Source: a virus
Taxonomy: Duplodnaviria > Heunggongvirae > Uroviricota > Caudoviricetes
IMG/VR virus record: IMGVR_UViG_2690316068_000003
Reading direction: 5' to 3' (one strand)
DNA: 23,415 nt
The notes under the pieces: generated by a model
The model's input: only the letters and a program-made list of their open reading frames with translations
What the model was told of the DNA's origin: nothing
Database searches by the model: none
Translations under genes and position numbers: made by a program
In this document: positions 9,278 through 23,415 of the stretch, piece after piece
How the letters are laid out: each line of letters opens with the position of its first letter
Numbering within the stretch: the first letter of the stretch is position 1

Positions 9278-9913
9278 ATGAACACTCTCGCAAATATTCA
9301 GGAAATCGCGCGCGCACTGCGCAACATGATCCGCACCGGCCTTGTCGTCGAAACCGACCTTAACGCCGGTCGCTGCCGTGTGCAGACCGGCGGCATGTGC
9401 ACCGACTGGCTTCAGTGGCTGACCCATCGCGCCGGGCGTTCGCGCACATGGTGGGCACCTTCCGTGGGGGAGCAGGTGCTGATTCTGGCCGTGGGCGGTG
9501 AACTTGACACGGCGTTTGTTCTGCCGGGGATTTATTCCGGCGATAACCCCGCGCCGTCTGCATCGGCGGATGCCCTGCATATCCGTTTCCCTGACGGGGC
9601 GGTGATTGAGTATGAACCCGAAACCAGTGCACTCACGGTAAGCGGAATTAAAACGGCCAGCGTGACGGCTTCTGATTCTGTTACTGCCACGGTGCCGGTG
9701 GTCACGGTGAAAGCATCAACCCGCGTCACCCTGGACACACCGGAGGTGGTCTGCACCAACAGGCTGATTACCGGCACGCTGGAAGTGCAGAAGGGCGGGA
9801 CGATGCGCGGCAACATTGAACACACCGGCGGTGAACTCTCATCAAACGGTAAGGTACTGCATACCCATAAACACCCCGGCGACAGCGGCGGCACAACCGG
9901 GAGTCCTCTATGA
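9278..9913 (+). CDS. V: Baseplate spike/hub protein, P2 gpV-like, 211 aa
   Basis: ATG 9278. Matches P2 V as recalled. Stop overlaps the W start (ATGA). Confidence 0.92.
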   Translation: MNTLANIQEIARALRNMIRTGLVVETDLNAGRCRVQTGGMCTDWLQWLTHRAGRSRTWWAPSVGEQVLILAVGGELDTAFVLPGIYSGDNPAPSASADALHIRFPDGAVIEYEPETSALTVSGIKTASVTASDSVTATVPVVTVKASTRVTLDTPEVVCTNRLITGTLEVQKGGTMRGNIEHTGGELSSNGKVLHTHKHPGDSGGTTGSPL

Positions 9914-10257
9914 CAGCGCGTTATCTCGGAATGAATCGCAGTGATGGCCTGACTGTCACTGACCTTGAGCATATCAGCCAGAGTATCGGCGATATCCTGC
10001 GCACACCGGTCGGCTCACGGGTGATGCGTCGTGATTACGGCTCGTTGCTGGCGTCAATGATTGACCAGCCGCAGACTCCGGCGCTTGAGTTGCAGATTAA
10101 GGTCGCCTGTTACATGGCGGTGCTGAAATGGGATCCCCGCGTCACCCTGTCATCCGTCACCACTGAGCGCAGTTTTGACGGGCGAATGACTGTCACTTTG
10201 ACCGGCCAGCACAACGACACCAGCCAGCCACTTTCGTTAACCATCCCTGTGAGTTGA
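9910..10257 (+). CDS. W: Baseplate wedge protein, P2 gpW-like (gp25 family), 115 aa
   Basis: P2 order and length. Confidence 0.9.
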   Translation: MTARYLGMNRSDGLTVTDLEHISQSIGDILRTPVGSRVMRRDYGSLLASMIDQPQTPALELQIKVACYMAVLKWDPRVTLSSVTTERSFDGRMTVTLTGQHNDTSQPLSLTIPVS

Positions 10258-10261
10258 AACC

Positions 10262-11170
10262 ATGCCGATTATCGACCTGAACCAGCTACCCGCACCGGAT
10301 GTGGTCGAGGAGCTGGACTTTGAAACCATTCTTGCCGAACGCAAGGCGACACTGATTTCCCTTTACCCGGAAGACCAGCAGGAGGCGGTTGCCCGTACCC
10401 TGACGCTGGAATCTGAGCCTCTCGTCAAACTGCTGGAGGAAAATGCTTATCGTGAGCTTATCTGGCGTCAGCGTGTGAATGAGGCCGCACGGGCGGTAAT
10501 GCTGGCCTGTGCCGCCGGTAATGACCTTGATGTGATTGGTGCCAATTACAACACCACGCGCCTGATTATCACCCCGGCAGATGATTCGACTATCCCGCCG
10601 ACACCGGCAGTGATGGAATCTGACACGGATTATCGTCTGCGTATTCAGCAGGCGTTTGAAGGTTTAAGCGTCGCCGGGTCAGTGGGAGCCTATCAGTATC
10701 ATGGTCGTAGTGCCGACGGGCGTGTCGCGGATATCTCTGTTACCAGTCCGTCTCCGGCCTGCGTCACCATCTCTGTGCTGTCACGTGAAAATAACGGTGT
10801 CGCATCCGAAGACCTGCTGGCGGTGGTGCGTAACGCCCTTAATGGCGAGGACGTCAGGCCGGTGGCCGACCGCGTGACCGTGCAGTCTGCCGCCATCGTT
10901 GAATACCAGATAAACGCCACGCTTTACCTTTACCCTGGTCCCGAAAGCGAACCCATACGCGCTGCCGCCGTGAAAAAACTGGAAGCGTACATCACGGCAC
11001 AGCACCGGCTGGGGCGCGACATCCGTCTGTCTGCCATTTATGCCGCTTTGCATGTGGAAGGCGTGCAGCGTGTCGAGCTGGCCGCACCACTGGCCGACAT
11101 CGTGCTCAACAGTACGCAGGCGTCTTTCTGTACCGAATACCGCGTCGTGACCGGAGGCTCGGATGAGTGA
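10262..11170 (+). CDS. J: Baseplate protein, P2 gpJ-like, 302 aa
   Basis: P2 order and length. ATG 10262. Confidence 0.92.
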   Translation: MPIIDLNQLPAPDVVEELDFETILAERKATLISLYPEDQQEAVARTLTLESEPLVKLLEENAYRELIWRQRVNEAARAVMLACAAGNDLDVIGANYNTTRLIITPADDSTIPPTPAVMESDTDYRLRIQQAFEGLSVAGSVGAYQYHGRSADGRVADISVTSPSPACVTISVLSRENNGVASEDLLAVVRNALNGEDVRPVADRVTVQSAAIVEYQINATLYLYPGPESEPIRAAAVKKLEAYITAQHRLGRDIRLSAIYAALHVEGVQRVELAAPLADIVLNSTQASFCTEYRVVTGGSDE

Positions 11171-11693
11171 TTCGCGACTGCTGCCGACCGGCTCATCACC
11201 GCTTGAGGTCGCCGCCGCAAAAGCCTGTGCGGAAATTGAAAAAACACCGGTCAGTATTCGTGAGCTGTGGAACCCGGACTCCTGTCCGGCAAATCTGCTG
11301 CCGTGGCTGGCGTGGGCGTTTTCGGTCGACAGATGGGATGAAAAGTGGCCGGAAGCGACAAAACGCGCTGTTATCCGCGATGCCTATTTCATCCACTGTC
11401 ATAAAGGCACTATAGGTGCAATCCGGCGTGTGGTGGAGCCGCTGGGCTATCTCATCAACGTGACGGAGTGGTGGGAAACCAGTGACCCGCCGGGCACCTT
11501 CCGGCTTGATATTGGTGTACTGGAAAGTGGCATCACAGAGGCAATGTATCAGGAAATGGAACGGCTGATTGCTGATGCCAAACCTGCAAGCCGCCACCTT
11601 ATTGGCCTGAACATTACCCGGGACATTCCCGGCTACCTGTTCGCCGGTGGTGTGGCTTACGACGGCGATGTAATTACGGTTTACCCCGGATAA
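11163..11693 (+). CDS. I: Baseplate protein, P2 gpI-like, 176 aa
   Basis: Overlaps the J 3' end by 8 nt. P2 order and length. Confidence 0.9.
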   Translation: MSDSRLLPTGSSPLEVAAAKACAEIEKTPVSIRELWNPDSCPANLLPWLAWAFSVDRWDEKWPEATKRAVIRDAYFIHCHKGTIGAIRRVVEPLGYLINVTEWWETSDPPGTFRLDIGVLESGITEAMYQEMERLIADAKPASRHLIGLNITRDIPGYLFAGGVAYDGDVITVYPG

Positions 11694-11703
11694 GTGAGGA
11701 ATA

Positions 11704-13998
11704 ATGAGCACAAAATTCAAAACCGTTATCACCACTGCCGGTGCAGCAAAGCTGGCAGCGGCAACCGCACCGGGAGGGCGGAAGGTCAACATTACCACGA
11801 TGGCCGTCGGGGATGGCGGTGGTAAATTGCCTGTCCCGGATGCCGGACAGACCGGGCTTATCCACGAAGTCTGGCGACATACGCTGAACAAAATCAGCCA
11901 GGACAAACGAAACAGTAATTATATTATCGCAGAGCTGGTTATTCCGCCGGAGGTGGGCGGTTTCTGGATGCGTGAGCTTGGCCTGTACGATGATGCGGGA
12001 ACGTTAATTGCCGTGGCGAACATGGCCGAAAGTTATAAGCCAGCTCTTGCCGAAGGCTCAGGGCGTTCGCAGACCTGTCGCATGGTCATCATCGTCAGCA
12101 GTGTGGCCTCGGTGGAGCTGACCATTGACACCACAACGGTGATGGCGACACAGGATTACGTTGATGACAAAATTGCAGAGCACGAACAGTCACGACGTCA
12201 CCCGGACGCCTCGCTGACCGCCAAAGGTTTTACTCAGTTAAGCAGTGCGACCAACAGCACGTCTGAAACACTGGCCGCAACGCCGAAAGCGGTAAAGGCC
12301 GCGTATGACCTTGCTAACGGGAAATATACTGCGCAGGATGCCACCACAGCGCGAAAAGGTCTTGTCCAGCTCAGTAGTGCCACCAACAGCACGTCTGAAA
12401 CGCTCGCCGCAACACCAAAAGCGGTAAAGGCCGCGTATGACCTTGCTAACGGGAAATACACTGCACAGGACGCCACCACAGCGCGAAAAGGTCTTGTCCA
12501 GCTCAGTAGCGTCACCAACAGCGATTCTGAAACGCTTGCGGCAACACCAAAGGCGGTTAAGACAGCGTATGACCTTGCTAACGGGAAATACACTGCACAG
12601 GATGCCACCACGGCGCGAAAAGGTCTTGTCCAGCTCAGTAGCGCCACCAACAGTGATTCTGAAACCCTCGCGGCAACGCCAAAAGCAGTGAAGTCTGCCT
12701 ATGACAATGCTGAAAAACGTCTTCAGAAAGATCAGAACGGTGCGGATATTCCGGGAAAGGATACCTTCACGAAAAATATCGGTGCCTGTCGTGCTTATAG
12801 CGGCGCTTTGAGCACTGAAGCCGGAAACTGGACAACCGCTCAGTTTATTGAATGGCTGGATTCCCGTGGTGCATTTAATCATCCGTACTGGATGTGCAAA
12901 GGCTCCTGGTCATATGCAAATAACAAAATCATTACGGATACCGGATGTGGTGATATCCACCTGGCTGGTTGTGTCGTCGAGGTCATGGGAACTAAATCTG
13001 CAATCACTATCCGAGTGACCACGCCGACAACATCAAGTGGTGGCGGTACAACCAGCGCGCAATTCACTTACATTAATCATGGGGACGGCTACTCCCCCGG
13101 CTGGCGTCGTGACTGGAATCGTCAGGGCGACTCAATGACCGGAACGATTAATCAGGATGGCGGAAGCCAGAATGCCTATATGTCTACGGCCTTATGTTCA
13201 GGCACCAGAGGCGGCAAAAAATATCTCAGAAAGTTTCGTGGTGGAGAAGGAGACACTATCTGGCATGAAACAGTACAGGGCGGGGTAGTTCGCTGGGCGA
13301 CTGGTAATACTGATGCTCAGGAAGAATTATCACTCAGCTCCGCTTATGGTCTCCGTTCAAGAGGTGAGATTACATCACTCAGTGCTAATGGTCTGCGCAT
13401 TGCTTATGGCAATTATGGATTCTTTATCAGGAATGATGGCAGCAGCACTTATTTTATGTTGACTAAATCAGGTGACAGATTAGGTACTTATAATAATTTA
13501 AGACCACTGATTATAAATGATGCCACGGGTGCTGTATCAATGGGGCATGGCCTGAGTGTTACTGGTGATATTGTCTCAAGTACCAAAGTACGTGCCGGTA
13601 GCGGGAAAAAATTCACGGTCAGCAGCAGTAATACATCCACGAAGGAAGCCGCATTCAATTTGTGGGGAAACTCAAGTCGTCCGGTGGTGGCTGAATTAGG
13701 TGATGATGCAGGCTGGCATTTTTACAGTCAGAGAAATACAGATAACAGCATCACTTTTGCTGTTAACGGTCAGGTATCACCATCTAACTATAGTAATTTT
13801 GATTCCCGTTATGTACGCGATATCCGGCTTGGGACTCGAGTTGTCCAGACCATGCAGAAAGGGGTGATGTATGAGAAAGCAGGGCACGTAATTACCGGGC
13901 TTGGTATTGTCGGTGAAGTCGATGGTGATGACCCCGCAGTATTCAGACCAATACAAAAATACATCAATGGCACATGGTATAACGTCGCACAGGTGTAA
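11704..13998 (+). CDS. H: Tail fibre protein, P2 gpH-like but longer (764 aa), with a mosaic low-GC distal domain
   Basis: The GC-rich N-terminal part is P2 H-like. Contains four in-frame 44-aa repeats carrying the phage tail-fibre repeat motif (SETLAATPKAVK). The distal half is AT-rich (about 30% GC on a sampled line) and is presumably the receptor-binding domain. Confidence 0.9.
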   Translation: MSTKFKTVITTAGAAKLAAATAPGGRKVNITTMAVGDGGGKLPVPDAGQTGLIHEVWRHTLNKISQDKRNSNYIIAELVIPPEVGGFWMRELGLYDDAGTLIAVANMAESYKPALAEGSGRSQTCRMVIIVSSVASVELTIDTTTVMATQDYVDDKIAEHEQSRRHPDASLTAKGFTQLSSATNSTSETLAATPKAVKAAYDLANGKYTAQDATTARKGLVQLSSATNSTSETLAATPKAVKAAYDLANGKYTAQDATTARKGLVQLSSVTNSDSETLAATPKAVKTAYDLANGKYTAQDATTARKGLVQLSSATNSDSETLAATPKAVKSAYDNAEKRLQKDQNGADIPGKDTFTKNIGACRAYSGALSTEAGNWTTAQFIEWLDSRGAFNHPYWMCKGSWSYANNKIITDTGCGDIHLAGCVVEVMGTKSAITIRVTTPTTSSGGGTTSAQFTYINHGDGYSPGWRRDWNRQGDSMTGTINQDGGSQNAYMSTALCSGTRGGKKYLRKFRGGEGDTIWHETVQGGVVRWATGNTDAQEELSLSSAYGLRSRGEITSLSANGLRIAYGNYGFFIRNDGSSTYFMLTKSGDRLGTYNNLRPLIINDATGAVSMGHGLSVTGDIVSSTKVRAGSGKKFTVSSSNTSTKEAAFNLWGNSSRPVVAELGDDAGWHFYSQRNTDNSITFAVNGQVSPSNYSNFDSRYVRDIRLGTRVVQTMQKGVMYEKAGHVITGLGIVGEVDGDDPAVFRPIQKYINGTWYNVAQV
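12226..12704 (+). repeat. Tandem in-frame 132-bp repeats, about 3.6 copies, inside H
   Basis: Unit starts at 12226, 12358, 12490 and 12622, each beginning GGT (Gly). Encoded units are near-identical (GLVQLSSATNSTSETLAATPKAVKAAYDLANGKYTAQDATTARK). The minus-strand track ORFs 12234-12650 and 12238-12882 are mirror artefacts of this array. Confidence 0.9.
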
Positions 13999-14001
13999 TT
14001 T

Positions 14002-14529
14002 ATGCAACATTTAAAAAATATTACTGCGGGTAATCCAAAAACTGTTGCCCAATATCAACTGACAAAAAATTTTGATGTTATCTGGTTATGGTCCGAAGAG
14101 GGAAAAAACTGGTATGAGGAAGTAAGTAATTTTCAGGAGGACACGATAAAGATTGTTTACGACGAGAATAATATAATTGTCGGCATCACCAGAGATGCTT
14201 CAACGCTTAACCCTGAAGGTTTTAGCGTTGTCGAGGTTCCTGATATTACCGCCAACCGACGTGCTGATGACTCAGGTAAATGGATGTTTAAGGATGGTGC
14301 CGTGATTAAGCGGATTTATACGGCAGACGAACAGCAGCAACTGGCAGAATCACAAAAGGCAACTTTGCTTTCCGAAGCCGAATCCGTGATTTTGCCGCTG
14401 GAGCGCGCTGTCAGGCTGAATATGGCAACAGATGAGGAACGCAGCCGACTGGAAGCATGGGAACGCTACAGCGTTCTGGTCAGCCGTGTGGATCCTGCAA
14501 ATCCTGAATGGCCGGAAATGCCGCAATAA
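14002..14529 (+). CDS. G: Tail fibre assembly chaperone, P2 gpG-like (Tfa family), 175 aa
   Basis: Immediately after H. The C-terminal ...[25 protein letters not shown] is Tfa-like. The 5' two-thirds is AT-rich and the 3' third is GC-rich. Confidence 0.85.
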
Positions 14530-14564
14530 GTTGTATAAGCTCTGGTGTGAGATTACATATCTAT

Positions 14565-14604
14565 GGCACAGAGTAAAGCCTAATCTGATAGGCCGCTCTG
14601 TGTC
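14565..14604 (+). other. Stem-loop downstream of G (9-bp stem with one G-U pair, about 22-nt loop with an internal GCCT/AGGC mini-stem)
   Basis: GGCACAGAG at 14565-14573 pairs with CTCTGTGTC at 14596-14604. There is no clean U-tract, so it is not a canonical intrinsic terminator. Confidence 0.3.
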
Positions 14605-14644
14605 TGGAGTAGATTTTAGTAAAGCATTATTTTATTAGTGCAAA

Positions 14645-14673
14645 TTCTAAACAATACATTTTATGTATATGAT
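14645..14673 (+). promoter_or_regulatory. Putative sigma70-type promoter for the cargo ORF
   Basis: TTCTAA at 14645-14650, a 17-bp spacer, then TATGAT at 14668-14673, in an AT-rich context about 80 nt upstream of ATG 14751. The -35 is weak and the call is by eye only. Confidence 0.2.
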
Positions 14674-14750
14674 ATCCTGCGGACTTTAATGACTTGGTTT
14701 AGGCTAACCAGATAACACTGAAGGAATATTTTTGATAATTAAGGTGCGGT

Positions 14751-15344
14751 ATGTTTACTAAGCGACGATTAAAAAATATTAATTGGGAGGCAAGTTCAGT
14801 GATTCTTGCTATGGTTCTCTTTGCTGGAAATATATTTTATACAAATCATCGTGATGATATAAGCATGGAGGCTGAGAGAGACAGTATCAGAACAATGTTT
14901 GCATATGAAATCGCTAATAACCATCGCGCTCTCACCTTTCTTGATAAAACGAGAAATATTGGCTTTGACGAAAATTCGGAGCATTTTGTTGGCGAGCCTT
15001 TTGCCATTAATGTCAAATCATTAGGAGGGCCTCGCTTACAGGTTGCATTAAACCAGACTGATAAAGTTTTTAAAGCCTACTTCAGTGAATTAAGTAAACT
15101 TGATAAAGAGGATGTTACTCTTCTTATGGACTATTACCATGAGCAAAGCATCCTGCTGGAGTGTGTAAAATCTACGTTACAGAAGATGAAAAGCAATAAT
15201 GATATTAAAGTTGATATTGATGGTTACTTATTAGAAGAACACTTCATGAATGAGTTTAATCTTTCTAATATTTTGCTTAAACGCTATAGCCATTTGTTGT
15301 CACAACACCTCAAAAAACCTGAAACAAAAGATTTACATAATTGA
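14751..15344 (+). CDS. Hypothetical membrane-anchored protein (197 aa), cargo gene in the G-FI accessory slot; candidate phage-exclusion/defence protein
   Basis: ATG 14751 with AAGGTG 4 nt upstream. Sampled 60-nt lines give 25-40% GC against about 60% in FI. Basic N-terminus (KRRLK) followed by one hydrophobic helix (SSVILAMVLFAGNIFY), then a charged, probably helical domain of about 165 aa with no motif I recognise. Confidence 0.7.
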   Translation: MFTKRRLKNINWEASSVILAMVLFAGNIFYTNHRDDISMEAERDSIRTMFAYEIANNHRALTFLDKTRNIGFDENSEHFVGEPFAINVKSLGGPRLQVALNQTDKVFKAYFSELSKLDKEDVTLLMDYYHEQSILLECVKSTLQKMKSNNDIKVDIDGYLLEEHFMNEFNLSNILLKRYSHLLSQHLKKPETKDLHN

Positions 15345-15550
15345 TGATCTGCTAATGGTTATTCATGGGATAACTATGTTTTATATGTAATCCAACTCAG
15401 ATGAATTATTGATTCTGGATAATAACCGCAGAGCGGCATATACCCTGACAGGCAAATGTCCGCTTCTTGCTCAAAGCAGACTGTCAGATTTGATAACTTT
15501 TGGGTTATGTAAATTGTCAGGCGGAAAATGAGTGAGTACAAATCAGGACA

Positions 15551-15577
15551 GGCGGGCGAATTGCCCGCCTTTTCTTT
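15551..15577 (+). terminator. Rho-independent terminator downstream of the cargo ORF
   Basis: GGCGGGC (15551-15557), loop GAATT, GCCCGCC (15563-15569), then TTTTCTTT. Confidence 0.6.
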
Positions 15578-15673
15578 ATCTGTTGTTTCATCCACTGACC
15601 AGCCAGGTCAAATAGCGTCTTATGCTCTGCACAACAGAAAATAGTTGCACCCATTAACCACGGAGTTAAACGG
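15578..15673 (+). promoter_or_regulatory. Region upstream of FI expected to carry the late promoter (P2 P_F equivalent)
   Basis: Positional inference from P2 operon structure. I could not identify a perfect TGT-N12-ACA box. GGAG at 15662-15665 serves as the FI RBS. Confidence 0.3.
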
Positions 15674-22057: not shown

Positions 22058-22276
22058 ATGTTTCATTGTCCTTTATGCCAGCATGCCGCACATGCGCGTA
22101 CAAGTCGCTATATCACTGACACGACAAAAGAGCGTTATCACCAGTGCCAGAACGTGAATTGCAGCGCCACGTTCATCACTTATGAGTCGGTACAGCGATA
22201 CATCGTGAAGCCGGGAGAAGTCCACGCCGTAAGGCCGCACCCGTTGCCGTCAGGGCAGCAAATTATGTGGATGTGA
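22058..22276 (+). CDS. ogr: Late-gene transcriptional activator Ogr (Cys4 zinc-finger protein), 72 aa
   Basis: MFHCPLCQHAAHARTSRYITDTTKERYHQCQNVNCSATF... matches P2 Ogr as I recall it, with CxxC...CxxxxC zinc ligands. The track ORF is extended upstream; the true start is ATG 22058. Confidence 0.93.
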   Translation: MFHCPLCQHAAHARTSRYITDTTKERYHQCQNVNCSATFITYESVQRYIVKPGEVHAVRPHPLPSGQQIMWM

Positions 22277-22286
22277 TCACAAAAAT

Positions 22287-22314
22287 AGCCCCTCAGTTGA
22301 GGGGCTTTATTTAT
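22287..22314 (+). terminator. Rho-independent terminator after ogr
   Basis: AGCCCCTC (22287-22294), loop AGTT, GAGGGGCT (22299-22306), then TTATTTAT. Confidence 0.65.
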
Positions 22315-22319
22315 GGTCG

Positions 22320-22338
22320 ATGTGGACGCTATGTGGAC
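22320..22338 (+). repeat. Two direct repeats ATGTGGAC spaced 11 bp apart; candidate integrase arm-type binding sites of the att arm
   Basis: ATGTGGAC at 22320-22327 and 22331-22338, the second extending to TGTGGACA. This resembles the P2 Int arm-site consensus as I recall it (TGTGGACA). Lies between ogr and the chromosomal junction, where P2 attP sits. Confidence 0.4.
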
Positions 22339-22344
22339 AGTGCT

Positions 22345-22366
22345 TGATATAAATCCATTTATATCA
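22345..22366. repeat. Perfect 10-bp inverted repeat with a 2-bp spacer (22-bp AT-rich palindrome)
   Basis: TGATATAAAT-CC-ATTTATATCA. The palindrome is read directly from the sequence; its function (core-type Int, Cox or IHF-type site) is inferred. Confidence 0.5.
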
Positions 22367-22404
22367 TCAGGTTAGGTGCTTTTTTATGACACCATCCCTG
22401 TCTT

Positions 22405-22431
22405 CCCCCACATGATGTGGGGGTTTTTTTT
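22405..22431 (+). terminator. Strong rho-independent terminator, probably the cpxP/CpxQ 3' terminator at the prophage-chromosome junction
   Basis: CCCCCACAT (22405-22413), G, ATGTGGGGG (22415-22423), then eight T. Lies 82 bp upstream of fieF, matching my recollection of the native cpxP-fieF spacing. Confidence 0.7.
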
Positions 22432-22512
22432 ATCCTCAATTTGCCTGCTGCTTAATGCATTGCAGATGATTTGCTTCCGTTATACTACCGTCAGTTGATA
22501 GCGGGAGTATTT

Positions 22513-23415
22513 ATGAATCAATCTTATGGACGGCTGGTCAGTCGGGCGGCGATTGCTGCGACGGCGATGGCTTCGCTGCTATTGCTGATTAAAATTTTTG
22601 CATGGTGGTATACCGGGTCGGTGAGTATTCTCGCCGCGCTGGTGGATTCGCTGGTGGATATCGGCGCGTCGTTGACGAATTTACTGGTGGTGCGATATTC
22701 CCTGCAACCTGCCGACGATAATCACTCGTTTGGTCACGGTAAAGCTGAGTCCCTCGCGGCGCTGGCGCAAAGTATGTTTATCTCCGGTTCGGCACTATTC
22801 CTGTTTTTGACGGGTATTCAACATCTGGTATCTCCAACACCGATGACAGATCCAGGCGTCGGGGTTATCGTGACAATTGTGGCGCTAATTTGTACGATTA
22901 TCCTTGTCTCGTTTCAGCGTTGGGTGGTGCGCCGGACGCAAAGCCAGGCGGTGCGGGCTGATATGCTACATTACCAGTCTGATGTTATGATGAACGGCGC
23001 AATTCTGCTGGCGCTGGGGTTGTCCTGGTACGGCTGGCATCGCGCCGATGCTCTGTTTGCATTGGGGATCGGCATCTATATTTTATATAGCGCGTTACGC
23101 ATGGGATATGAGGCGGTACAGTCATTACTGGATCGCGCATTGCCTGATGAGGAACGGCAAGAAATTATTGATATCGTGACTTCCTGGCCGGGTGTTAGCG
23201 GCGCTCACGATCTTCGCACGCGGCAGTCAGGGCCGACCCGCTTTATTCAGATTCATTTGGAAATGGAAGACTCTCTGCCTTTGGTTCAGGCACATATGGT
23301 GGCGGATCAGGTAGAGCAGGCTATTTTACGGCGTTTTCCGGGATCGGATGTGATTATCCATCAGGACCCCTGTTCCGTCGTACCCAGGGAGGGTAAACGG
23401 TCTATGCTTTCATAA
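22513..23415 (+). CDS. fieF: Cation-diffusion-facilitator family Fe(II)/Zn(II) efflux transporter FieF (YiiP), 300 aa, chromosomal
   Basis: [54 protein letters not shown]... matches E. coli FieF as recalled. The track ORF begins at an upstream TTG; the true start is ATG 22513. Typical chromosomal composition. Confidence 0.93.

Follow-up and report, generated by a model that had tools for sequence, protein, structure and literature searches.

In the current analysis, a tandem array in a 23,415-nucleotide stretch of viral DNA (the window) was found to be the long-known 44-amino-acid "phage tail fibre repeat," an ordinary and well-documented feature, here located in gene H, which encodes the tail fibre of a P2-like prophage of E. 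coli. We think it likely that this array consists of four shaft modules of the PF03406 (Phage_fiber_2) family, which vary internally in copy number and mark the junction at which distal domains are swapped. According to this proposal, the modules would lie in the shaft of a trimeric fibre, between a conserved N-terminal part that plugs the fibre into the baseplate and a distal receptor-binding part that was acquired horizontally and moves together with the chaperone gene G. Unit number would change through unequal homologous recombination or replication slippage at the 29 to 41 bp that are identical in register, with each additional unit presumably giving a longer shaft. The conserved core (…QLSSATNSxSETLAATPKAVK) would in turn amount to a patch of ca. 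75 to 88% identical DNA in otherwise unrelated prophages, at which homologous (or relaxed homologous) recombination could join the resident N terminus to a foreign distal module and its chaperone, with frame and fold both kept.

Gene H occupies positions 11704 to 13998 (plus strand, as are the repeat units, the distal modules, and gene G) and encodes a protein of 764 aa that is 100% identical to the RefSeq "tail fiber protein" WP_060588545.1 of E. coli Z1323HEC0477; many E. coli genomes encode the identical protein. The RefSeq annotation of the identical locus gives the gene order V-W-J-I-H-G-(cargo)-FI-FII of a P2-like (Peduovirus) late operon, and Pfam places Tail_P2_I upstream of H and Caudo_TAP downstream. 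Within H, Pfam finds PF12571, four PF03406 repeats, and PF21446, the last spanning aa 540 to 604. The conserved N-terminal baseplate-attachment part (11704 to 12225) contains the tail-collar fibre N-terminal domain (PF12571, aa 1 to 151, E value of 3e-58) and shows 98 to 100% identity across 80 IMG/VR loci with H genes of 642 to 816 aa. At the other end of the protein, the C terminus (YINGTWYNVAQV) is kept in every allele class. Judging from these sequence relationships, H probably forms the six tail fibres of the virion and would thus determine adsorption. For annotation, the gain is confirmation of a standard mosaic P2-type fibre gene, and no more.

The array runs from 12226 to 12704 and is far beyond chance expectation. 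Tandem Repeats Finder reported a period of 132 with 3.5 copies at 12250 to 12705 (90% matches, 0% indels, score of 695), and a repeat search of the window returned three 225-nt copies spaced 132 nt apart, the first at 12223; nothing comparable was found in the rest of the 23,415 nt. Aligned in the H frame, the array resolves into three full 132-bp units, namely, U1 (12226 to 12357), U2 (12358 to 12489), and U3 (12490 to 12621), followed by a partial terminal unit, U4 (12622 to 12704, core GLVQLSSATNSDSETLAATPKAVKSAY), which is always the last unit in type-B alleles. Each encodes the motif G[FL][TV]QLSS.TNS.SETLAATPKAVK.AYDLANGKYTAQDATTARK. The coordinates, the 132-bp period, the ca. 3.6 copies, and the 44-aa motif given in an earlier reading made from the sequence alone (the sequence-only reading) were all correct, as was its assignment of the units to the conserved phage tail-fibre repeat: PF03406 matches H four times (255.5 bits against a cutoff of 22, E value of 1.4e-77), most strongly at aa 170 to 210, which align with profile positions 1 to 41 of 42. 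These matches fall between PF12571 and the Mu S'/S-like distal region (aa 333 to 763), that is, upstream of the receptor-binding part.

The same reading called the DNA repeats near identical, and this did not hold. Pairwise identity among the full units is only 81 to 90% (88.6% between U1 and U2 and 90.2% between U2 and U3), and U4 is 73 to 86% identical to the others. The longest exact matches in register are 41 and 29 bp, the former shared by U1 and U2 and beginning at 12286. Codons that differ between U1 and U2 do so synonymously in 10 cases and nonsynonymously in 2, and across the units dN/dS is ca. 0.05 to 0.15, with dS at 0.3 to 0.8. Strong selection on the protein sequence thus maintains the units, so that failure of conservation at the protein level, named at the outset as grounds for abandoning the interpretation, was not what we found; the units are old paralogues, not fresh duplications. 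Three further open reading frames overlap the array (12238 to 12882 and 12234 to 12650 on the minus strand and 12437 to 12691 on the plus strand). None of them matched a Pfam family above threshold, and the differences between units are mostly synonymous in the H frame; we regard these antisense and out-of-frame frames as by-products of a stop-free repeat.

One trivial explanation is that the repeat number is an artifact of assembly, with repeats collapsed or expanded. Short-read assemblies do often break at the repeat, and the proteins recovered in a search with the array by itself were mostly labeled "partial." However, the four-unit gene is present at 99.9 to 100% identity in two finished E. 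coli chromosomes and at 93 to 98% in about 30 more, a 99% identical copy occurs in two independently sequenced Yersinia phage isolates, and the units differ from one another by 10 to 19%, which is enough to place them unambiguously. We reject this explanation, whose probability we regard as negligible; the artifact foreseen as a possible objection did not materialize, the same array being carried by finished chromosomes and phage isolates alike.

The comparison of H length and copy number among relatives, which had been proposed as a check, bore out the expectation that copy number varies. Among alleles that share a distal domain, unit number takes the values 2, 3, 4, 5, and 6, and H lengthens by exactly 44 aa at each step, giving length series of 676/720/764/808 aa, 728/772/816/860 aa, and 811/855 aa that together cover 2 to 6 units; natural alleles overall have 1 to 6. 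Genes spanning 2295 and 2163 nt (four- and three-unit alleles) are both present in finished genomes, and one three-unit allele from a complete genome shows a clean 132-bp in-frame deletion that fuses U2 to U3, with flanks 99.8% and 99.4% identical to those of the window. The order of units is constant, U1-(U2/U3)n-U4. In all of 90 distinct H genes the first unit best matches U1, and the U3-type unit occurs 0 to 3 times in relatives (as in the order 1-2-3-3-3-4 of locus L094). The outer units, U1 and U4, are positionally fixed, and it is the internal U2- and U3-type units whose number differs between alleles, from 0 to 4.

Such a series might bring to mind a fast-switching contingency locus, in which unit number changes at high frequency in the phage population and tunes the reach of the fibre to host surface layers. 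The alleles of 2 to 6 units do share the same flanks, and between one three-unit allele and a four-unit one the flanks are less than 1% divergent. Against this, units that are just 81 to 90% identical, at the dS given above, are contrary to frequent homogenizing exchange; their positional orthology is kept across lineages, and the four-unit form dominates, accounting for 93 of 146 distinct sequences with this distal domain and 33 of the 38 full-length matches listed among complete genomes. Moreover, hypermutable contingency loci are recognized by highly identical units, frequent gain or loss, and usually a switch in expression or a change of phase, whereas the units here are 132 bp long and always in frame. 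We consider this alternative very unlikely. A bolder version, to which we give similarly little credence, would make the internal unit number (0 to 4 in nature and two here) an adaptive length dial that changes often by unequal recombination within a lysogen lineage and matches fibre reach to the depth of LPS, O antigen, or capsule, and in enterobacterial fibre genes the repeat would double as a ruler and a universal splice site. What is observed of such a dial is confined to alleles that differ by multiples of 44 aa while their flanks remain nearly identical.

Downstream of the array lies a short junction segment (12705 to 12761, DNAEKRLQKDQNGADIPGKDT), the counterpart of the Mu Sc/gix/Sv' region but without a gix site, and then the distal part of H. 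Distal module 1 (12700 to 13164, aa 333 to 487) is of the Mu/P1 S' type and matches Mu S' (PDB 8JU3, Mu S/S'; domain i-E value of 1.2e-69); distal module 2 (13333 to 13992, aa 544 to 763) is of the Mu S/T4 gp34 C-terminal type and matches Mu S (PDB 5YVQ; domain i-E value of 1.3e-47) as well as the T4 gp34 structures 4UXE and 5NXF. Gene G follows at 14002 to 14529 and encodes the tail-fibre assembly chaperone (PF02413, E value of 9e-35). G is coinherited with distal H: the stretch that the non-P2 phage vB_YpM_44 has in common with the window runs from H gene nt 1021 through G. A 99% identical H gene is found in the viable phage isolates vB_YpM_115 and vB_YpM_117.

Base composition changes at this same point. 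The GC content is 55.7% in the N-terminal part of H, 54.5% in the array, and 47.0% in the distal part, compared with 56.8% in the backbone; distal module 1 is at ca. 50% and module 2 at 44%, and gene G, at 45.3%, resembles distal H. The maximum-likelihood change point falls at 12681 (support, 12486 to 12722), within U4 at the 3' edge of the array, with 57.3% to its left and 46.3% to its right. The sequence-only reading was thus right to place the array at a compositional switch but overstated the contrast, since the step is from 57% to 46% and no part of H exceeds 60% GC.

A role of the repeat as a junction for swapping receptor-binding domains, proposed from the outset, is supported by three lines of comparative evidence: clustering of breakpoints, DNA shared with stf genes, and the occurrence of the same module behind other N termini. 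With regard to the first, 14 of 19 allele classes diverge within the array or no more than 56 nt beyond it, a zone that makes up 30% of the available length (binomial P of ~1e-4, for loci that were chosen for an identical N terminus and are not independent lineages). Two blastn breakpoints, gene nt 594 and 726, are in the same phase, directly after TPKAVK, and those at gene nt 1008, 1049, and 1058 correspond to window positions 12711, 12752, and 12761. The remaining five classes break elsewhere in H (gene nt 1411, 1862, and 2129), so the array is not the sole joint. A mosaic boundary has likewise been placed inside unit 1, at ca. aa 207, in gpH of L-413C (PMC7460101). With regard to shared DNA, a match was found in 2427 of 5426 complete E. 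coli genomes, and ca. 45% of evenly sampled records matched nowhere outside the array, the partner in most cases being a lambdoid stf gene with ca. 86% identity. The DNA that H has in common with unrelated lambdoid prophages lies mainly in the array, and there are up to 16 matching places per genome. Finally, the repeat stands directly 5' of the same distal sequence behind N termini that are lambda-Stf-like (L160 to L163) or P1-S-like (L143 and L159).

It may be, however, that the repeat is only a structural adaptor: recombination would strike at random positions, only joints at this self-contained module would fold and assemble, and the cluster of breakpoints would reflect functional selection and no hot spot. 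The strong purifying selection on the protein fits this explanation well, as does the single codon phase of the breakpoints just after TPKAVK, which a module boundary predicts. Furthermore, dS between window and lambdoid stf units is 0.7 to 1.6, high enough that the DNA identity they share is largely a by-product of protein conservation and not of recent exchange, and engineered chimeras joined elsewhere, at P2 aa 370, are also functional (PMC9942202). Nevertheless, the array still offers 29- to 41-bp exact matches within H and stretches of ca. 200 bp at ca. 86% identity in unrelated prophage genes of the same cell, and relaxed homologous recombination between lambda and the stf genes of defective prophages has been demonstrated experimentally (PMC3945230). 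We judge a purely structural role to be possible but on balance improbable; the adaptor and recombination-linker explanations are in any case compatible with each other.

Much of this organization is familiar from other phages. P2 gpH (NP_046775) has the same gene position (V-W-J-I-H-G), N-terminal domain, and repeat motif as H of the window. The two DNAs are colinear as far as gene nt 726, which lies inside unit 2, and once more across the last ca. 390 nt and gene G, the joined match covering 63% of the H-G query at 88.6% identity. After the TPKAVK of unit 2, P2 continues into a lambda-Stf/P1-"b"-type segment (…TVMDETNKKAPLNSPALTG), whereas the window eventually enters its Mu/P1 S'-type module. 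P2 has two units and the window four, and the length of 669 aa given at the outset for P2 H and the estimate of two extra units here proved accurate; the other 7 aa of the length difference come from the different distal domain. Lambda-type Stf/StfR proteins of lambdoid prophages contain 2 or 3 copies of the same unit, the Pf2 domain in Ghosh et al. 2012 (PMC3368898). In O157:H7 Stf, the units share 77 to 82% DNA identity with those of the window, and some lambdoid contigs (the L160 to L163 group) have the distal sequence of the window after the unit; Stf nonetheless differs from H in having an unrelated N-terminal domain (PF08400 type) and a siphovirus tail, with the repeat near aa 470 to 580 of a ca. 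970- to 1040-aa protein.

In phage P1, the constant part of gene S (Sc) contains annotated "repeated elements a0/a1" (GenBank M81956). Element a1, exactly 132 bp in length, codes for the same 44-aa unit (YTAQDASTTQKGLVQLSSATNSDSETMAATPKAVKSIKDLADTK); aligned in register, its DNA shows 69% identity to the window units, and it too precedes the variable receptor-binding part. P1 possesses a single full unit and a 36-bp fragment, followed by "b" repeats, a cix site, and the invertible C segment; the window, in contrast, has four units and lacks the b repeats, the cix site, and the invertase. The repeat was already described in the early 1990s, going by the M81956 annotation and citations in other papers; the entry reportedly stems from the 1992 P1 tail-fibre sequencing work of Sandmeier, Iida, and Arber. 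Mu is similar. The Sc region of its S/S' fibre (PDB 5YVQ, 8JU3, and 9KI1) has one copy of the unit (KGLVQLTSATDSPSETLAATAKAVKIAMDNANARLAKDRNGADIP) as opposed to four, and DNA homology with the window starts at 12724, just inside the Gin-invertible G segment. In Mu, inversion at gix swaps two distal modules; in the window there is just one, which is fixed and attached directly to the repeat.

These parallels raise the possibility that the distal module arrived by site-specific recombination, with a Gin/Cin/Pin-family invertase acting at a gix- or cix-like site beside the repeat to move an Sv'-type cassette, the site being lost later. Exchange of tail-fibre genes at invertase sites is said to have been proposed by Sandmeier in 1994. 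The segment from 12724 to 13114 is 72 to 77% identical in DNA to Sv' within the invertible regions of Mu, P1, and P7; its homology to Mu sets in right behind gix, 40 nt inward from the boundary of the G segment; and the breakpoints at 12752 and 12761 fall in codons (…DTFTKNIG) paralogous to the gix-encoded IQNLGLQE. The mechanism has also been cited for stf genes (PMC3945230). Despite this, at no position does the window match Mu gix with 3 or fewer mismatches or the AAACCNNGGTTT core with 1 or none. Nor was an invertase or a second, oppositely oriented Sv'/U' cassette found: before FI there are only H, G, and a 197-aa hypothetical open reading frame, with no recombinase by annotation or Pfam. 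The window therefore has the Sv/Sv'-type module of the invertible systems (Mu Gin/G, P1 Cin/C, p15B Min, and e14 Pin) but not the switching system. In addition, no invertase is needed to explain the changes in copy number or the joints of type A (P2 and lambda type, at gene nt 594 and 726), and the window reads as Mu Sc fused to Sv' through a duplicated L.KD.NGADIP motif, as a homologous deletion would give. We find acquisition by an invertase unlikely.

A structure prediction of the array (AlphaFold2 monomer, aa 163 to 359, 40-sequence alignment) gave a pLDDT of 35.5 and a pTM of 0.20 and was not usable as a model, which is expected when one chain of a fibre trimer is modeled by itself. With only the array as query, a protein search aimed at the upper limit of copy number yielded mostly truncated, "partial" proteins from contig ends, on contigs of <1 kb. 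The repeat is common to several prophages per genome, short-read assemblies break at it as a result, and unit counts from draft genomes should be treated with care.

Engineered chimeric P2-P1(S') fibres have been shown to be functional (PMC9942202), and H of the window is a natural counterpart of them. For this fibre family, the natural in-frame splice points are the core of the unit, up to its terminal TPKAVK, and the segment that follows the last unit. They may serve as a guide for P2/P4 delivery particles and retargeted tailocins, in which the choice of fusion points has until now been empirical (PMC9594776, PMC9942202).

Tandem Repeats Finder reported a single strong array in the window, at 12250-12705, with a period of 132, 3.5 copies, 90% matches, no indels, and a score of 695; a repeat finder returned three 225-nt copies at 132-nt spacing, the first at 12223. 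In the reading frame of the tail fiber gene H (11704-13998, 764 aa), the units are U1 (12226-12357), U2 (12358-12489), U3 (12490-12621), and a partial U4 (12622-12704). Each carries the motif G(F/L)(T/V)QLSS.TNS.SETLAATPKAVK.AYDLANGKYTAQDATTARK, and Pfam recognized four Phage_fiber_2 repeats (PF03406) in H (255.5 bits; cut-off, 22). The coordinates, period, copy number, and motif proposed in the sequence-only reading were right. However, its description of the DNA repeats as near-identical was too strong; full units are just 81 to 90% identical, and U4 is 73 to 86% identical to the others. Synonymous changes dominate the codon differences between units (synonymous to nonsynonymous, 10:2, 13:5, and 7:3), with dN/dS of ca. 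0.05 to 0.15 and dS of 0.3 to 0.8. Protein-level conservation, on which that reading depended, is evident from the four PF03406 repeats and the low dN/dS, and the units are old paralogues kept by protein-level selection rather than fresh duplications. Opposite-strand ORFs across the array were rejected as genes; none is supported by a protein family, and the pattern of substitutions is that of the H frame. An AlphaFold2 model of the array as a monomer had a pLDDT of 35.

The GC content is 55.7% in the N-terminal part of H, 54.5% in the array, 47.0% in the distal part of H, 45.3% in the adjoining assembly chaperone gene G (14002-14529), and 56.8% in the backbone. A maximum-likelihood fit over 9278-14529 puts the change point at 12681 (support, 12486-12722), where the GC content drops from 57.3% on the left side to 46.3% on the right. 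The composition switch claimed for this place is real, although H never rises above 60% GC as had been supposed. Homology changes here too. Among 80 IMG/VR loci whose N-terminal 172 aa are 98 to 100% identical to those of the window, H spans 642 to 816 aa, and we located breakpoints by comparing each H with the window H by blastn (array, gene nt 523-1002). In type A, which includes P2 and the 681-aa and 724-aa classes, colinear homology ends at gene nt 594 or 726, in unit 1 or 2, in matching codon phase and right after TPKAVK. In type B, it ends at nt 1008, 1049, or 1058, no farther than 56 nt past the array. The remaining breakpoints lie farther down the gene, at nt 1411, 1862, and 2129. Fourteen of 19 length and breakpoint classes break within the array or at most 56 nt after it, a zone making up 30% of the available length (binomial P of ca. 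1e-4, for classes that are not independent lineages and were chosen for an identical N terminus). For L-413C gpH, the published mosaic boundary is located there as well, near aa 207 (PMC7460101). As judged from these comparisons, the array lies at a boundary of both composition and homology.

The conserved core probably serves as a recombination foothold, by which a resident N terminus would be joined to a foreign distal module and its chaperone. Alternatively, the breakpoint pattern may reflect selection for those chimeras that are able to fold, a view compatible with the foothold explanation. DNA matches to H were found in 2,427 of 5,426 complete E. coli genomes, and in a sample evenly spaced along the ranking, ca. 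45% of records matched the array only (query nt 454-860). These were mostly lambdoid prophage genes annotated as “prophage tail fiber N-terminal domain-containing protein,” with ca. 86% identity; an O157:H7 Stf has three Phage_fiber_2-type units. Between window and lambdoid units, dS is 0.7 to 1.6, so the shared DNA identity derives largely from protein conservation. This, together with the 5 of 19 classes that break elsewhere in H, weakens a pure hot-spot reading. With the numerical corrections, the observation is confirmed, and the interpretation offered in the sequence-only reading is supported.

The distal part of H has relatives in several fibers, as the comparison suggested earlier now reveals. 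In searches against solved structures, aa 333 to 487 matched the variable part of Mu S' (8JU3), and aa 544 to 763 matched Mu S (5YVQ) and the C-terminal region of T4 gp34; at the DNA level, 12724-13114 is 72 to 77% identical to the Sv' segments that lie within the invertible regions of Mu, P1, and P7. A reciprocal search with the distal 432 aa placed this sequence directly behind a Phage_fiber_2 unit in genes with a lambda-Stf-type N terminus (MAVKISGVLKDG…, L160-163) and in genes with a P1-S-type N terminus (MWYREGT…, L143 and L159, on contigs of 92 to 110 kb). On this sequence evidence, the same type of repeat unit occupies the same joint in unrelated fiber backbones. H has matches in 62 PHROG families, which marks it as extremely mosaic. 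The extreme C terminus of H, YINGTWYNVAQV, is retained in almost every allele class regardless of the middle part, as would fit a docking site for chaperone G.

Homology to Mu begins immediately past the crossover site gix, 40 nt into the G segment. Over the stretch matching Mu Sc/gix/Sv' (window 12700-12790; Mu, L168:1440-1560), Mu reads …AVKIAMDNANARLAKDRNGADIPNKPLF-IQNLGLQE(gix)-TVNQASGALQQNQNGADIPGKDTFTKNIG…, while H reads …AVKSAYDNAEKRLQKDQNGADIPGKDTFTKNIG…. Mu S' has two copies of the motif L.KD.NGADIP(G/N)K..F, one in Sc ahead of gix and one where Sv' begins, but H has a single copy, as would be expected had two L.KD.NGADIP copies recombined, deleting the crossover site and fixing one distal module. 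Invertase-mediated cassette transfer could also have produced the type B joint, which is compatible with the foothold explanation. No gix-like site was found in the window, and no invertase gene is annotated in the RefSeq locus; the window has the distal module in common with these phages but lacks their switching system.

That copy number varies, as had been proposed, is borne out by the H lengths of relatives. P2 H is indeed 669 aa, with two units against four in the window, and the 720-aa H of Yersinia phage P37 has three. Units were counted in 202 distinct H proteins with an HMM derived from the units of the window. In the subset that has the window's distal domain (≥85% identity across ≥400 aa), H lengths form three series that rise in exact 44-aa steps: 676, 720, 764, and 808 aa (2 to 5 units); 728, 772, 816, and 860 aa (3 to 6 units); and 811 and 855 aa (5 and 6 units). 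Natural alleles range over 1 to 6 units. Among the full-length matches listed for finished genomes, 33 of 38 span 2295 nt (four units) and 5 span 2163 nt (three). E. coli GTVSS-020, with three units, differs from the window by one exact 132-bp in-frame deletion between flanks 99.8 and 99.4% identical; the 5' part of U2 is fused to the 3' part of U3 within identical sequence, so that the allele has the form of a clean unequal-exchange product. Unit typing of 90 distinct genes showed that the first unit is always U1-like, that the last is U4-like in type B alleles, and that variation is confined to the internal U2/U3-like units, of which there are 0 to 4 (e.g., 1-4, 1-2-4, 1-2-3-4, and 1-2-3-3-3-4). 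The longest exact in-register matches are 41 bp between adjacent units and 29 bp between units two apart, and matches of 29 to 41 bp should be long enough for unequal homologous exchange by RecA-dependent recombination. Unit number may thus change by unequal homologous recombination or slippage, and added units would lengthen the shaft. P2/lambda-type distal alleles (joint just after TPKAVK) have one or two units and those with the S'-type joint two to six (L004-L083 and the length series); copy-number polymorphism therefore seems limited to one junction type.

An assembly artifact is ruled out by the four-unit gene in finished E. coli chromosomes (two at 99.9 to 100% identity, ca. 30 more at 93 to 98%) and, at 99% identity, in Yersinia phages vB_YpM_115 and vB_YpM_117, which were isolated independently. 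When the array by itself served as the query, most of the proteins retrieved were “partial” tail fiber proteins on contigs of <1 kb (proteins P0121-P0240), and as many as 16 places in a complete E. coli genome match H DNA. The repeat is common to several prophages per cell and often breaks short-read assemblies, and unit counts from draft genomes are consequently unreliable.

In phage P1, the annotation of Sc, the constant part of gene S, includes “repeated element a0” (36 bp) and “repeated element a1” (132 bp) (GenBank M81956); they encode the same 44-aa unit type, with DNA 69% identical to the window's units in register. Horizontal exchange of tail fiber gene parts among P2, lambda, Mu, P1, and T4 was described by Haggård-Ljungquist et al. 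(1992), Sandmeier et al. (1992), and Sandmeier (1994), as relayed in PMC3945230 and PMC13100340, and engineered P2-P1(S') chimeric fibers are functional (PMC9942202). Given these precedents, the array is an already known feature, correctly read from the sequence. The Pf2 domain has also been noted in lambdoid Stf and EHEC collagen-like fiber proteins, its structure being little known (PMC3368898).

The window covers the late-gene region of a P2-like (Peduovirus) prophage. H is 100% identical throughout to the E. coli Z1323HEC0477 chromosome (NZ_CP148323.1), where the RefSeq order is portal, terminase, capsid, lysis, baseplate V-W-J-I, tail fiber protein, tail fiber assembly protein, hypothetical gene, sheath, tube, tape measure, D, ogr, and host fieF; many assemblies of E. 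coli and E. albertii encode an identical 764-aa protein. The window leaves the prophage within 22277-23415, and since ogr stops near 22276 and fieF occupies 22471-23415, the right attachment junction must fall in 22277-22470. Between G and the sheath gene FI lies an AT-rich island (14530-15673, 36.6% GC) with a 197-aa ORF (14751-15344, + strand) in the cargo position where P2 has fun(Z). The ORF matches phrog_3829 (unknown function; E, 1e-132), had no match in Pfam or PADLOC, and may be an uncharacterized defense or lysogenic-conversion gene. Sibling prophages carry at this spot a LysR-type regulator (vB_YpM_115), a Shedu nuclease (E. coli GTVSS-020, L166), or no cargo (P37).
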